Shown here piece after piece: positions 26,462-35,111 of a stretch of DNA of 64,000 nucleotides. Position numbers and translations under genes: made by a program. How positions within the stretch are numbered: the stretch's first letter is position 1; every line of letters begins with the position of its first letter. Below the pieces are notes generated by a model. It saw only the letters and a list, made by a program, of their open reading frames with translations. It was not told where the DNA came from and searched no databases. The stretch comes from Firmicutes bacterium ADurb.Bin182 (lineage in GTDB: Bacteria > Bacillota > Clostridia > Christensenellales > CAG-138), in the NCBI GenBank assembly GCA_002070205.1, contig MWCU01000059.1:442-64441 (forward strand). The letters are read 5' to 3'.

Positions 26462-26496
26462 AAATATATATACTCTTGCGTATAAACTTATGTTTT

Positions 26497-26528
26497 GTGA
26501 CCGGCGTGTGACCGAAAAATGGTTTAAT
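26497..26528 (+). promoter_or_regulatory. Island promoter copy 1: direct repeat GTGACCG-N4-GTGACCG plus TGg-TTTAAT
   Basis: Half-sites at 26497-26503 and 26508-26514 (11-bp period). Extended -10 TG at 26520-21 and hexamer at 26523-28. The spacing is identical in all four copies. Confidence 0.6.
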
Positions 26529-26534
26529 AAAAGT

Positions 26535-26691
26535 GCGAACAGTCATTTCCAATTCCATAGCCGTTGCGGCCTATTACCTGTCTGCCGTATCCCCGCTGCG
26601 TTGATCCGGCGGGGATACGGAGATACCAAATTAAATTAGATCGCGAAAAATCGCAGGGAGCGGCTTTAAAGTCGTTCCCTGTTTATATTTT
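26535..26691 (+). ncRNA. Candidate structured non-coding transcript driven by island promoter copy 1
   Basis: No credible ORF or RBS. Perfect 12-bp hairpin CCGTATCCCCGC/GCGGGGATACGG (26585-26620). Terminator-like CAGGGAGCG/CGTTCCCTG followed by TTTATATTTT (26654-26691). Ends are inferred, not measured. Confidence 0.3.
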
Positions 26692-26813
26692 GAGCTCTTT
26701 TTTCGCAATCACAGCCGCGCCCGGGCGGACCGGCACATGCCGCGAGCTAATCGCGGACCTGCAAGTCCGGTTTCTTTGAATCCCGATAAATAATTTTATA
26801 TATTTTCACTCAT

Positions 26814-26845
26814 ATGACCGGCGTGTGACTGGCGTATGCTTTAAT
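26814..26845 (+). promoter_or_regulatory. Island promoter copy 2: ATGACCG-N4-GTGACTG plus TGc-TTTAAT
   Basis: Half-sites at 26814-20 and 26825-31. TG at 26837-38 and -10 hexamer at 26840-45. About 60 nt upstream of the 26909 start. Confidence 0.6.
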
Positions 26846-26908
26846 ACATATCGGCATAACGTGACGAATTATCGAACTGTCTGAAGAACTGTGCAGAATA
26901 AACGGAGA

Positions 26909-33086: not shown

Positions 33087-33109
33087 GCGGCTTCGGCCGC
33101 GTTTTTTAT
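33087..33109 (+). terminator. Rho-independent terminator after paralog 5
   Basis: GCGGC-TTCG-GCCGC followed by GTTTTTTATT. Confidence 0.7.
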
Positions 33110-33333
33110 TGTCTTTTCGCATAAAATATCGGATTATTCTTAATAACAGCTCCAGACTCGACTTTTGAATAAATCTGTCGAACGATTTTTCCCATGCCTT
33201 TTTCAAATGAGAATCATTATCGTTGTTCTCGGTATGCGCTTATTTGTAAGGGCCTGCTTTGGCGGTGAAGCCCCGTGAACCTTATAATCCGCCAATTCTC
33301 AACACATGCCCGGCCCGGGCCCCTTCCTTTCTT

Positions 33334-33365
33334 ATGACCGGTTTGTTACTGACTGCAATTAAAAT
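33334..33365 (+). promoter_or_regulatory. Island promoter copy 4: ATGACCG-N4-GTTACTG plus TAAAAT
   Basis: Half-sites at 33334-40 and 33345-51. -10 hexamer at 33360-65 with the same spacing as copies 1-3, but no TG extension. About 115 nt upstream of the 33480 start. Confidence 0.5.
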
Positions 33366-33479
33366 TTGGCTGACCATTACTAAAAGGGAATTGTGAGACA
33401 TAAATAATGAAATGGGTCAGCGTCTAATAATTTCCTGTAATCGCGTCAATAATATTCAACAAAACATGGAAAGAGGGTT

Positions 33480-35060
33480 ATGAAAATGAAAGATCGGATG
33501 AAAAAGAGACTGTCGCTTCTTATTGCGGTATTGATGGTAATGCTGCTGTTTCCTTCAACCGGTTTAGCCGACACGTCTGTGCATGTTCGCAATGTTCCGG
33601 ATTATGTTGAGGGTGTTGAAGTTAACCTGAATGGTGGCAGAGCAATCATATGTATGGAGCAAGGCAATAAATGGACCGGATCGGATAACGGCGAGTACAT
33701 TACTGACCAAATAGTTTCCGTCACTCTTATATGGGATAGTAATAAAATTAAAGAAGTGATTCCAAGATCCTTTATAAATTTCGGCGTCGAGGGGGGCGGA
33801 AGCGGTACATTAAATATCAAGCTTCAAGGCGGTTGGAACAAAACCTCCGTCAGCGGAACAAAAACGTGGGTCGATAATAATAATGAGGACGGGAAACGCC
33901 CTTCGAGCATAACCGTTGCATTGTATGCGGACGGTAATCATAAAGAGAATAAAACTGTCACGGCAGGGGACAACTGGCAATACAGCTTTACAAACCTTTC
34001 AAAATATAATAATAACGGTGTTTTGATCGCCTATACCGTGGATGAAAGCAGTGTTGCGGACGGTTATACGAAGGGAGTCGACGGTTATGACATTACGAAC
34101 ACATACACTCCCCCCGCTGAAGAGACCGGCAGCTTGAAGGTTATCAAAAAGGTAACCGGAAATGCGGTTCCCACTCGGAACGTCAGCTATTCATTCTCGG
34201 TATCGGGACCGAACGGCTATACAAACAGCTTTACGATAACGGGCGCAGGCAGTCATATCCTAACCGAACTTAAACCGGGAGAATACACGGTAACCGAAGA
34301 TGTTCCTGCCGGAAGCGAATTTACGGTTGACGGCGCGGAAAAAACCGTGACAGTCAGGGCAAATAAGACAGCAAAGCTGACCTTCACCAACACTTATTGT
34401 ACGGGGGAGGAAGAAACCTGCTCCCTGACTGTCAAAAAGATCGTGGAAGGCAAAGGCGCGCCTAAAAATGATGAGTTTAAATTCAAAATTCGAAAAGACG
34501 GGCGGACGAACTTCCGGGAATTCACATTAACGGCGGGCGAAGAAATAACTTTTGCGGACCTCAAGCCCGGGCAGTATACCGTCACCGAAACCGATTGGCC
34601 GAAAGACTATGCTCCGAAATCGGAGAGTAAAACGGTTACCGTGAATTCCGGCGATGATAAGCTTGTTACATTTACAAATGTCTATGATTCTTGCGATGAG
34701 CCGGTTCCGCCGCGGCGTACATATGCGGTTTTTTATCATCCGAACGGCGGATCGGGAACAATCCCCTCAGATATGAACAGATATTATTCGGGCGATAAAG
34801 TTTGGCTGAAGTCCGGCGACGGCCTTTACATGCCGAAACACATATTCGCGGGATGGTCTTTGAAGGACGGCACACGGGTGTACGATCCGTATATCATGGG
34901 AAAGAGCGACGTTACATTCTATGCGGTTTGGGTGCCAGTCAAGATCCCCAAAACAGGAGATACGGCTGTTCCGTACGGGATTTTAATGATTGCGGGCGGT
35001 ATTTCGCTTGCCGCTTTGAATCTGATATTTGAACTGAGAAAGCGGCGTTTACCGAGATAA
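33480..35060 (+). CDS. Cell-wall-anchored adhesin: CnaB domain, two prealbumin-like 'LKPG.YTVTE' modules, a Listeria-Bacteroides repeat, and an IPKTG sorting signal
   Basis: Signal peptide. 'GTKTWVDNNNEDGKRPSSITVALYADG...YTVDE' (CnaB). Two 'F.F.....LKPG.YTVTE' modules. 'FAGWSL...FYAVW'. 'IPKTGD' (34944-58) followed by a TM segment and 'RKRRLPR'. Confidence 0.8.
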   Translation: MKMKDRMKKRLSLLIAVLMVMLLFPSTGLADTSVHVRNVPDYVEGVEVNLNGGRAIICMEQGNKWTGSDNGEYITDQIVSVTLIWDSNKIKEVIPRSFINFGVEGGGSGTLNIKLQGGWNKTSVSGTKTWVDNNNEDGKRPSSITVALYADGNHKENKTVTAGDNWQYSFTNLSKYNNNGVLIAYTVDESSVADGYTKGVDGYDITNTYTPPAEETGSLKVIKKVTGNAVPTRNVSYSFSVSGPNGYTNSFTITGAGSHILTELKPGEYTVTEDVPAGSEFTVDGAEKTVTVRANKTAKLTFTNTYCTGEEETCSLTVKKIVEGKGAPKNDEFKFKIRKDGRTNFREFTLTAGEEITFADLKPGQYTVTETDWPKDYAPKSESKTVTVNSGDDKLVTFTNVYDSCDEPVPPRRTYAVFYHPNGGSGTIPSDMNRYYSGDKVWLKSGDGLYMPKHIFAGWSLKDGTRVYDPYIMGKSDVTFYAVWVPVKIPKTGDTAVPYGILMIAGGISLAALNLIFELRKRRLPR

Positions 35061-35074
35061 TTCAGCTGTGTGGC

Positions 35075-35111
35075 GAAAGCGCGGCTCATGCCGCGCTTTC
35101 AAACATTTTTA
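35075..35111 (+). terminator. Hairpin terminator after the adhesin gene
   Basis: GAAAGCGCGGC-tcat-GCCGCGCTTTC, an 11-bp perfect stem. The T-run begins 6 nt later. Confidence 0.55.

Follow-up and report, generated by a model that had tools for sequence, protein, structure and literature searches.

A clostridial sipW locus with four TasA-like paralogs that probably encodes a cell-surface fibre with a sortase-anchored base

The window analysed here is a stretch of 64,000 nucleotides from contig MWCU01000059.1 (positions 442 to 64,441, forward strand) of Firmicutes bacterium ADurb.Bin182 (assembly GCA_002070205.1). Between xth and ispE it carries eight genes, all on the + strand, which encode a secreted protein (protA), a SipW-type signal peptidase, four TasA-like paralogs (P1–P4), a sorted protein (P5) and a Cna_B adhesin with an IPKTG motif; every member of this set, as listed in a preliminary description of the window, was found in place. 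As judged from sequence, the locus is fairly likely to specify a cell-surface fibre of the TasA/BsaA superfamily with P5 as its sortase-anchored base. It belongs to a locus type, defined in this analysis as sipW with TasA-like orthogroups, an adhesin and a sorted P5, that is real and widespread in gut and digester Clostridia. Among the protein scaffolds of Gram-positive biofilms, fibres of the TasA/BsaA kind are the ones understood best; their attachment to the cell, and the existence of ordered heteropolymers, are still matters of question. Together with about 40 relatives, the locus provides a conserved parts list that makes subunit order, an isopeptide lock between subunits and sortase anchoring directly testable: besides the peptidase and a sorted base, it comprises a class B sortase, subunits of four or five orthogroups and an adhesin whose C-terminal module is distinctive. 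The host clades are abundant gut and digester Clostridia, including at least one cultured isolate.

The signal peptidase gene (28737–29243, + strand) encodes a protein of 168 amino acids (aa) that scores 109.4 bits against TIGR02228 (signal peptidase I of the archaeal/endoplasmic reticulum type), above the cut-off of 51.85. Its catalytic Ser/His/Asp set is complete in the motifs SGSMEP, ATHRVV and GDAN, and it has a C-terminal transmembrane helix. The earlier assignment to this type of peptidase, with SGSMEP, THR and GDAN, is borne out by the score and by all three motifs. Against the Bacillus SipW equivalog model NF046067, the protein scores 98.5 bits, under the cut-off of 190. That SipW stands together with TasA-family substrates, also claimed earlier, is confirmed by the matches to TIGR02228, PF12389 and TIGR04088 and by the fold match of P2 described below. 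In the related locus L006 (3167–4324), SipW and P1 lie in a single 385-aa reading frame, which could be a fusion, a read-through or just the lack of an in-frame stop between two genes.

Downstream of sipW lie the genes of P1 (29301–29804; 167 aa), P2 (29868–30437; 189 aa), P3 (30494–31132; 212 aa) and P4 (31563–32156; 197 aa), all on the + strand. They encode TasA/BsaA-like proteins, named after them as P1, P2, P3 and P4 types, that share 24–30% pairwise identity. The motif GGT(L/F)AW(L/F) occurs in all four, as previously noted, together with N.F..G, PG...K and terminal A.A(I/V)Q motifs. The earlier account of these motifs needs correction in that P4 reads N.V..G.I, not N.F..G, and the last Trp lies 9–13 residues past AIQ, not 4. 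With hidden Markov models (HMMs), P2 and P3 reach 31.4 and 30.4 bits against PF12389 (TasA/camelysin, Peptidase_M73), above the Pfam gathering threshold of 22.5 bits, and P1 and P4 remain below it (16.0 and 18.0 bits). The model of the SipW-cognate signal, TIGR04088, which is scored on the N-terminal signal domain with a cut-off of 19 bits, is passed by P3 (42.2 bits) and P1 (23.9 bits); P4 is below (16.6 bits), and P2 is not among the matches although GGTLAWL is present. These scores uphold the family assignment of the preliminary description. P1 and P4 are tied to the TasA family because of their paralogy with P2 and P3; both also match the family HMM (E values of 5e-34 to 4e-47), but they are contained in its alignment, so this is not independent evidence. 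Against the Bacillus TasA equivalog model, the score is 16.8 bits where 450 are needed.

The AlphaFold2 (AF2) model of P2 has a predicted local distance difference test (pLDDT) score of 82.7, and its putative donor segment (residues 31–39) is disordered (<50). Its top Foldseek match in the PDB is the TasA fibre 8aur (E 7e-4, probability 1.0; TM-scores 0.37/0.32), and further matches are archaeal AbpA (7ueg) and the chaperone-usher pilin SafA, with low TM-scores. A profile of 120 family sequences has a single sequence match in the PDB, TasA 5of1, which is weak (E 0.42) and aligns the N.F..G, PG..K and A.A.Q motifs. A match to Cep192 obtained with a five-paralog profile was dismissed as chance. 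By their family and fold matches, P1–P4 are TasA-family proteins with SipW-type signal peptides.

A neighbourhood comparison across Clostridia recovered 43 related loci, most of which share one architecture. One genome per species was scanned with a query alignment of eight sequences, and the loci were annotated by HMMs and motif scans. They are found in Oscillospiraceae, Christensenellales, Lachnospiraceae, Acutalibacteraceae, Ruminococcus, Gemmiger, Flavonifractor and others, and the host of one of them (L029) is the cultured isolate Pseudoflavonifractor gallinarum DSM 107456. The commonest gene order begins with sipW and an additional TasA-like gene, goes on through P2-type, P3-type and P4-type genes to a large adhesin, and ends with P1-type and then P5-type. 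sipW is present in 38 of the 43 loci and at least three TasA-like genes in 36/43, mostly three to five per locus and in conserved orthogroups. A P5-like gene occurs in 28/43, a P1-type gene directly upstream of a P5-type gene in 25/43, and a P5-type protein with a sorting signal in 24/43. In canonical loci, the P4-type gene is usually directly upstream of the large adhesin gene, and the P1-type gene directly upstream of the P5-type gene. Each of P1–P4 in the window has a position-specific best match in other loci; they read as ancient, position-specific orthogroups across clostridial orders, not as recent duplicates, which fits distinct roles in one fibre.

The window holds all four elements of the locus type: sipW, three or more TasA-like orthogroups, a sorted P5-type protein and an adhesin that bears the WSWRY...WL.G.S...N.F module. 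Its arrangement recurs beside xth in L006–L010. Relative to the commonest order it is rearranged, and it matches the nearest distant arrangement, that of L011 (VWA adhesin, sipW, P1, P2, P3, P5 with TPKTG, sortase). A class B sortase adjoins the locus in L011, L023 and L036; against TIGR03064 (cut-off 153.75), those of L011 and L036 reach 207 and 188 bits. Variant loci were also seen in L020, L023 and L032 (about 9–20 kb of each), where sipW is followed by five to eight tandem TasA-like genes, mostly of 400–700 aa, with a class B sortase upstream in L023 and no P5-type gene within the fetched stretches.

Among 184 non-redundant TasA-like proteins, three columns hardly vary: an Asn in the N-terminal strand, within V.N.F (~99%), a Glu placed 13 residues after it (~90%) and a Lys past the PG turn (~95%). 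The set is complete in P1 and P3, and it reads Asn/Asp/Lys in P2 and Asn/Tyr/Cys in P4; the P4 orthologues of L006 and L009 have Phe and Gly at the acceptor positions. In C. perfringens, BsaA subunits polymerise by donor-strand exchange and are joined by an N35–K74 isopeptide bond whose formation is catalysed by E56, and mutation of N35, E56 or K74 each abolishes the ladders that resist sodium dodecyl sulphate (PMC11580942). The V.N.F pattern matches V33, N35 and F37 of BsaA, and TasA has Ala at the donor-Asn position in the 5of1 alignment.

P5 (32335–33057, + strand; 240 aa) has an AxA-type general Sec signal, a Pro-rich linker, a beta-sandwich domain and a C-terminal sorting signal. The APGTG sorting motif (32938–32952, + strand; residues 202–206) lies in KAPGTGD and is followed by a 20-residue hydrophobic stretch and KRKKEE. 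In four orthologues, which are 63–69% identical, P203, T205 and G206 are invariant, and K(A/T)P(G/R)TG, the hydrophobic segment and an RKKE tail are kept. Pfam and NCBIfam scans matched P5 to no curated family and to no TasA model, and a first profile match to the paralogs was weak (62%). An hhalign comparison of 60 P5-like with 120 TasA-like sequences gave 94.9% probability (E 4e-8) over 114 columns, from the PGD strand through the last strand. What had been described as a fifth paralog with a Sec and a sorting signal does carry both signals; the homology itself is remote and seen at profile level only. P5 thus reads as a distant TasA-superfamily member with a wall-sorting signal, not as a close paralog of P1–P4.

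A profile search of 1.84 billion representatives gathered a P5 family of 746 clusters at E ≤ 1e-3, and these roughly 750 clusters of small sorted proteins are covered by no current curated model. A sorting signal, in the form xPxTG(D) with a hydrophobic segment and a basic tail, ends 126 of the 149 best representatives, none of which (0/149) has a SipW-type signal. Other family members pass TIGR01167 and TIGR03063; no anchor HMM reached its cut-off for proteins of the window. The Lys of the family motif FK..MPGD is absent from P5 of the window clade. The AF2 model of P5 is of moderate confidence (pLDDT 68), and its best PDB matches are FimA, FimF, AbpA (7ueg) and a Sulfolobus thread. The EF0750/EF2685 family was rejected for P5 on account of matches limited to the anchor region, and the sole PDB match of the P5 family profile, a designed transmembrane protein, was set aside as it also came via the anchor region.

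Some related loci encode other forms of this protein. Extended P5-type proteins ending in LIQTGQ or LIDTGQ instead of xPKTGD are found in L038 (14232–15467), L028 (12306–13487), L046 (15905–17137) and L027 (18510–19913). In L038, the P5-like domain is fused to two Cna_B stalk domains, and L028 and L046 have longer P5-like proteins that match the Cna_B adhesin of the window and look similar to the L038 fusion. A more distant locus, on the ENA metagenome contigs L001/L002, has four TasA-like genes besides sipW, a P1-type gene and a VWA protein of 941 aa that shares the C-terminal WSWRY module. Its P5-like protein (314 aa) ends in a transmembrane segment and a long charged tail with no sorting motif, and may be a form of the base subunit that is anchored in the membrane.

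The gene upstream of sipW, protA (26891–28519, + strand), encodes a protein in which a signal peptide and a Pro/Thr linker are combined with beta-rich domains. Its secretion and its linker are as previously noted; the earlier length of 536 aa applies only from the ATG at 26909, and the product is 542 aa from the GTG start. No Pfam family scores above threshold, and the only PDB matches, to transcription activator-like effectors, were discarded as low-complexity. An orthologue occupies the same position in L006 (2e-96). The C-terminal module of protA (28058–28510, + strand) is a SpaA-like 'GTYTVT..WSWRY' domain with the end 'WLSGEAFATNRNL'. When seven large adhesins of related loci were searched against the window with tblastn, only this segment was matched (E 1e-12 to 2e-9), and homology to the large-adhesin C-terminus spans the last 100–236 residues of protA. 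The large adhesins, of 880–1875 aa, have variable N-terminal heads (in L011 a VWA domain and a GBS104-like tip-pilin Ig domain, in L021 Listeria-Bacteroides repeats) and a common tail, a SpaA-like '..Y.V.E...WSWRY' domain that ends WL.G(D/E)S...N.F a few residues before the stop. This terminal motif is kept in about 20 loci, and the region of the L021 adhesin equivalent to the protA module scores weakly in Pfam as SpaA/DUF7601. Thus protA appears to be a shortened form of the system's large adhesin whose gene, as in L011, has come to lie upstream of sipW, and it is a candidate tip or cargo adhesin of the fibre. No remnant adhesin gene was detected by tblastn in the gap between P3 and P4.

By analogy with TasA and BsaA, SipW would cleave after GGT(L/F)A and thereby free an N-terminal strand (..V.N.F..G..) on each of P1–P4, which would enter the incomplete beta-sandwich of a neighbouring subunit by donor-strand exchange. 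Most subunit junctions would probably be locked by an Asn–Lys isopeptide bond, as in BsaA, because the donor Asn and the acceptor Glu and Lys are nearly invariant. Synteny suggests that P1–P4 are four specialised orthogroups of a single heteropolymer, in which P2 is a candidate shaft subunit, and that protA joins through its conserved C-terminal module. P5, with its ordinary signal peptide and no SipW-type donor strand, would form the base, and its APGTG motif would be linked to peptidoglycan by a class B-type sortase whose gene would lie in another part of the genome. The mechanism of the preliminary description, a wall-tethered heteropolymer of this sort, is plausible; co-assembly, polarity and wall anchoring are what we infer from homology and synteny.

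Polarity is the weakest step. The C-terminal N-x-F strand of the adhesin would insert into a P4-type groove, the shaft subunits would be joined N-strand to groove, and the N-strand of the P1-type subunit would insert into P5, which would both terminate and anchor the fibre. The pairings of P4-type with adhesin and of P1-type with P5 are suggested by gene adjacency, and this direction is favoured because the terminal N-x-F of the adhesin and the Lys of the P5 family are conserved. The loss of the acceptor Lys in P4 co-varies with the adhesin terminal motif suggestively in the window clade, but not cleanly in L029 and L050, where an internal N-D/V-F motif persists in the adhesin, and it was not relied on as evidence of pairing. 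A tentative extension, which we hold to be possible but rather doubtful, is a full Gram-positive pilus whose assembly needs no polymerising sortase, with donor-strand orthogroups, Asn–Lys locks at most junctions, the adhesin's C-terminal Asn strand on a P4-type adaptor, a P1-type adaptor inserted into an acceptor-only P5-type terminator, and anchoring by a class B sortase. If true, it would represent a third assembly logic for Gram-positive surface fibres, one in which chaperone-usher-like connectivity would go together with the isopeptide chemistry of pilins and with anchoring by a sortase, and which would be widespread in gut Oscillospiraceae, Christensenellales and Lachnospiraceae.

Several points weigh against an anchored fibre of this kind. 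All of P1–P4 score below the TIGR04090 (BsaA family) cut-off of 60 bits (30.5, 37.4, 26.9 and 34.1 bits, respectively), with matches confined mainly to the N-terminal 80–90 residues, so that by this model they classify as relatives of BsaA and not as members. The fold matches have low TM-scores (0.27–0.37). The spacing from Asn to Glu is 13 here versus 21 in BsaA, and equivalence of the Glu and Lys columns to E56 and K74 is presumed by analogy. P4, P5 and the Cna_B adhesin are set apart by terminator-like hairpins, and a scan of open reading frames (ORFs) for TLxTC revealed no sortase of any class in the 64-kb window, where tblastn queries with S. aureus SrtA and with two class B sortases linked to related loci gave nothing below E 0.4. 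In C. perfringens strain 13, BsaA oligomers are membrane-associated and not wall-linked, BsaB stays out of BsaA polymers, and srtB or bsaB mutants still polymerise (PMC11580942). These last observations, with the hairpins past P4 and P5, the promoter-like site of the Cna_B adhesin and the missing sortase, would suit a shed biofilm matrix as for BsaA in strain 13, perhaps of separate homopolymers, with P5 and the Cna_B protein as unrelated neighbours. We consider such a matrix improbable for the locus as a whole, given that P1-type and P5-type genes are adjacent in 25 of the 43 loci from several families, that P5 is remotely homologous to the fibre subunits, that a class B sortase lies beside the cluster in three loci, and that the orthogroups are fixed and ordered. 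For the Cna_B adhesin taken alone, an unrelated neighbour is probably the right description.

The moderate-confidence model of P5 raises a different objection, since its N-terminal strand is folded into the domain in the manner of FimA self-complementation and P5 could therefore be a strand donor rather than an acceptor. In a fibre of opposite polarity, P5 would act as a covalently anchored TapA that nucleates and tethers the polymer by donating its N-strand (..V.F/Y.G..) to the first TasA-like groove, and the free N-strand at the far end would dock into the C-terminal SpaA-like domain of the adhesin. TapA complements TasA by an N-terminal strand (PMC10151520). The P5 family has a conserved N-terminal V.Y.G.A..FVF segment, which the model shows as a beta-strand; the best PDB match of this model is self-complemented FimA, and the P1-type subunits encoded beside P5 retain the acceptor Glu and Lys. 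This orientation is nonetheless unlikely: the N-strand of P5 lacks the family's invariant donor Asn, the highly conserved Lys of FK..MPGD in the P5 family is better explained by an acceptor role, and the invariant terminal N-x-F of the adhesin is left without an explanation. The Pfam name Peptidase_M73 would allow the paralogs to be secreted camelysin-type metalloproteases, a reading that is hardly credible and was rejected, as a motif scan found HExxH in none of P1–P5; the fold match is to the TasA fibre, and the protease assignment of CalY is itself seen as a likely misidentification (PMC11580942).

The preliminary suggestion that a system joining TasA-type assembly, sortase anchoring and this many paralogs may be undescribed does not hold, as such neighbourhoods appear in two preprints, PMC11580942 and bioRxiv 10.64898/2026.01.04.697558. 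Most C. perfringens strains carry sipW-bsaA-bsaB(LPXTG)-bsaB-bsaC adjoining srtB; BsaA/TasA genes are often found beside genes for LPXTG and SpaA proteins and for sortases, in operons with several paralogs, heteropolymers have been proposed, and wall anchoring through BsaB is termed 'speculative' (PMC11580942). Loci of the TasA superfamily that encode minor subunits, tip proteins and anchors of the SLH or LPXTG kind have also been described, and for an LPXTG anchor co-assembly with a TasA-superfamily fibril subunit is predicted by AlphaFold3 (bioRxiv 10.64898/2026.01.04.697558). No experimental characterisation of such a system was found in the literature searched. Such a system is thus not new as a concept. 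Neither of these preprints contains the orthogroup order, the P5 family or the C-terminal module of the adhesin.

Of the known systems, the C. perfringens bsa locus resembles the window in having a SipW-type peptidase followed by several TasA-like proteins, one with a sorting signal, and a large non-TasA secreted protein, with VWA in BsaC and in the L011 adhesin; it also shares the class B sortase found beside some related loci and, if the columns are equivalent, the donor Asn and acceptor Glu/Lys. The window differs from it in having four SipW-type paralogs in conserved orthogroups rather than two, a sorted protein from a very divergent family with a general Sec signal, an adhesin that is upstream of sipW, truncated and without VWA, no sortase nearby, paralogs below the TIGR04090 cut-off, and another triad spacing. 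Like tapA-sipW-tasA of B. subtilis, it has an accessory protein gene upstream of sipW, SipW-dependent signal peptides and a (here proposed) donor-strand-exchange fibre, and 8aur is the best match of the P2 model. Unlike this system, in which TasA is a homopolymer without an Asn/Glu/Lys lock and TapA is unrelated to protA and P5 and not sortase-anchored, the window misses the Bacillus equivalog models for SipW (98.5/190 bits) and TasA (16.8/450 bits).

The AbpX, AbpA, Tafi and Saci_0406 threads, including the abpX locus of C. amylolyticum with its LPXTG anchor, share a modular plan with a dedicated signal peptidase I, major and minor subunits, a tip protein and an anchor; their LPXTG anchor is predicted to join by donor-strand complementation, and the P5 and P2 models match AbpA (7ueg). 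They belong to different subfamilies, their AbpX-associated peptidase with ten transmembrane helices and its DUF5305 partner are absent here, and AbpX is stabilised by calcium, not by isopeptide bonds. Sortase pili of the SpaA/RrgB type offer parallels in the proposed tip adhesin (VWA/GBS104-like in L011), shaft and wall-anchored base, the Cna_B/SpaA stalk domains and the putative isopeptide chemistry, but polymerisation here would take place without a class C sortase; none is found in the window, and the locus-linked sortases are of class B. Chaperone-usher pili (Fim/Pap) are similar in the proposed donor-strand connectivity and in FimA being the best match of the P5 model, and different in that no usher or chaperone is present here.

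The Cna_B/SpaA surface adhesin downstream of P5 (33480–35060, + strand; 526 aa) has a Cna_B domain (3.5e-27), two SpaA/DUF5979 domains and DUF7601, and it ends in IPKTGD (34944–34958), a transmembrane segment and RKRR, in agreement with its earlier identification as a CnaB adhesin with IPKTG. It is probably transcribed separately and a sortase substrate in its own right, because it has a promoter-like site (33259–33288) and terminators of its own, one of them after the gene (35075–35100), and its linkage to P5 is limited to the close relatives L006–L010. Of the adhesins that had been described as bracketing the system, protA belongs to it by the C-terminal module common to the large adhesins, and the Cna_B adhesin looks separate. 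Just past P4 is a terminator-like hairpin with a T-run (32176–32194, + strand), identified by consensus match only, and another such hairpin lies past P5 (33084–33103, + strand). A 104-aa ORF (35068–35382) starts inside the terminator hairpin after the adhesin and has an internal signal-peptide-like segment; its weak match to the hydrophobin BslB (E 0.0055) is confined to the signal region, and it is probably either spurious or a small secreted protein.

P4 is preceded by a structured spacer or leader of 430 nt (31133–31562, + strand; fold z-score -3.08), with a long perfect hairpin near 31250–31300. Within it, just upstream of the P4 ribosome-binding site, a 40-nt hairpin-containing sequence is repeated 2.5 times in tandem (31448–31544, + strand; Tandem Repeats Finder score 106), and this repeat part is conserved in L006 (5685–6024). 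Rfam has no family for the spacer and yielded nothing meaningful over 26–36 kb. The spacer may be a leader that sets P4 dosage.

The locus is flanked by xth (25664–26461; TIGR00633, 295 bits) and ispE (35405–36241, − strand; TIGR00154, 177.5 bits). P2 is identical to BWY11_01236 and P5 to BWY11_01239 of the metagenome-assembled genome of Firmicutes bacterium ADurb.Bin182. The surrounding genes are of housekeeping and sporulation function (spoIID, mfd, spoIIE, spoIIR, sleB, ypeB). Those for a SpoIID-SH3 protein, spoIIE, spoIIR and sleB/ypeB lie at 5386–8157, 19859–21856 and 36305–39119 of the window, and since the fibre locus sits among sporulation genes the host is a spore-former. TasA was first described as spore-associated. 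The G+C content is 0.41–0.45 over P2–P3 and the start of the adhesin gene (29500–31500 and 33000–34000), compared with 0.50–0.55 in the flanks.

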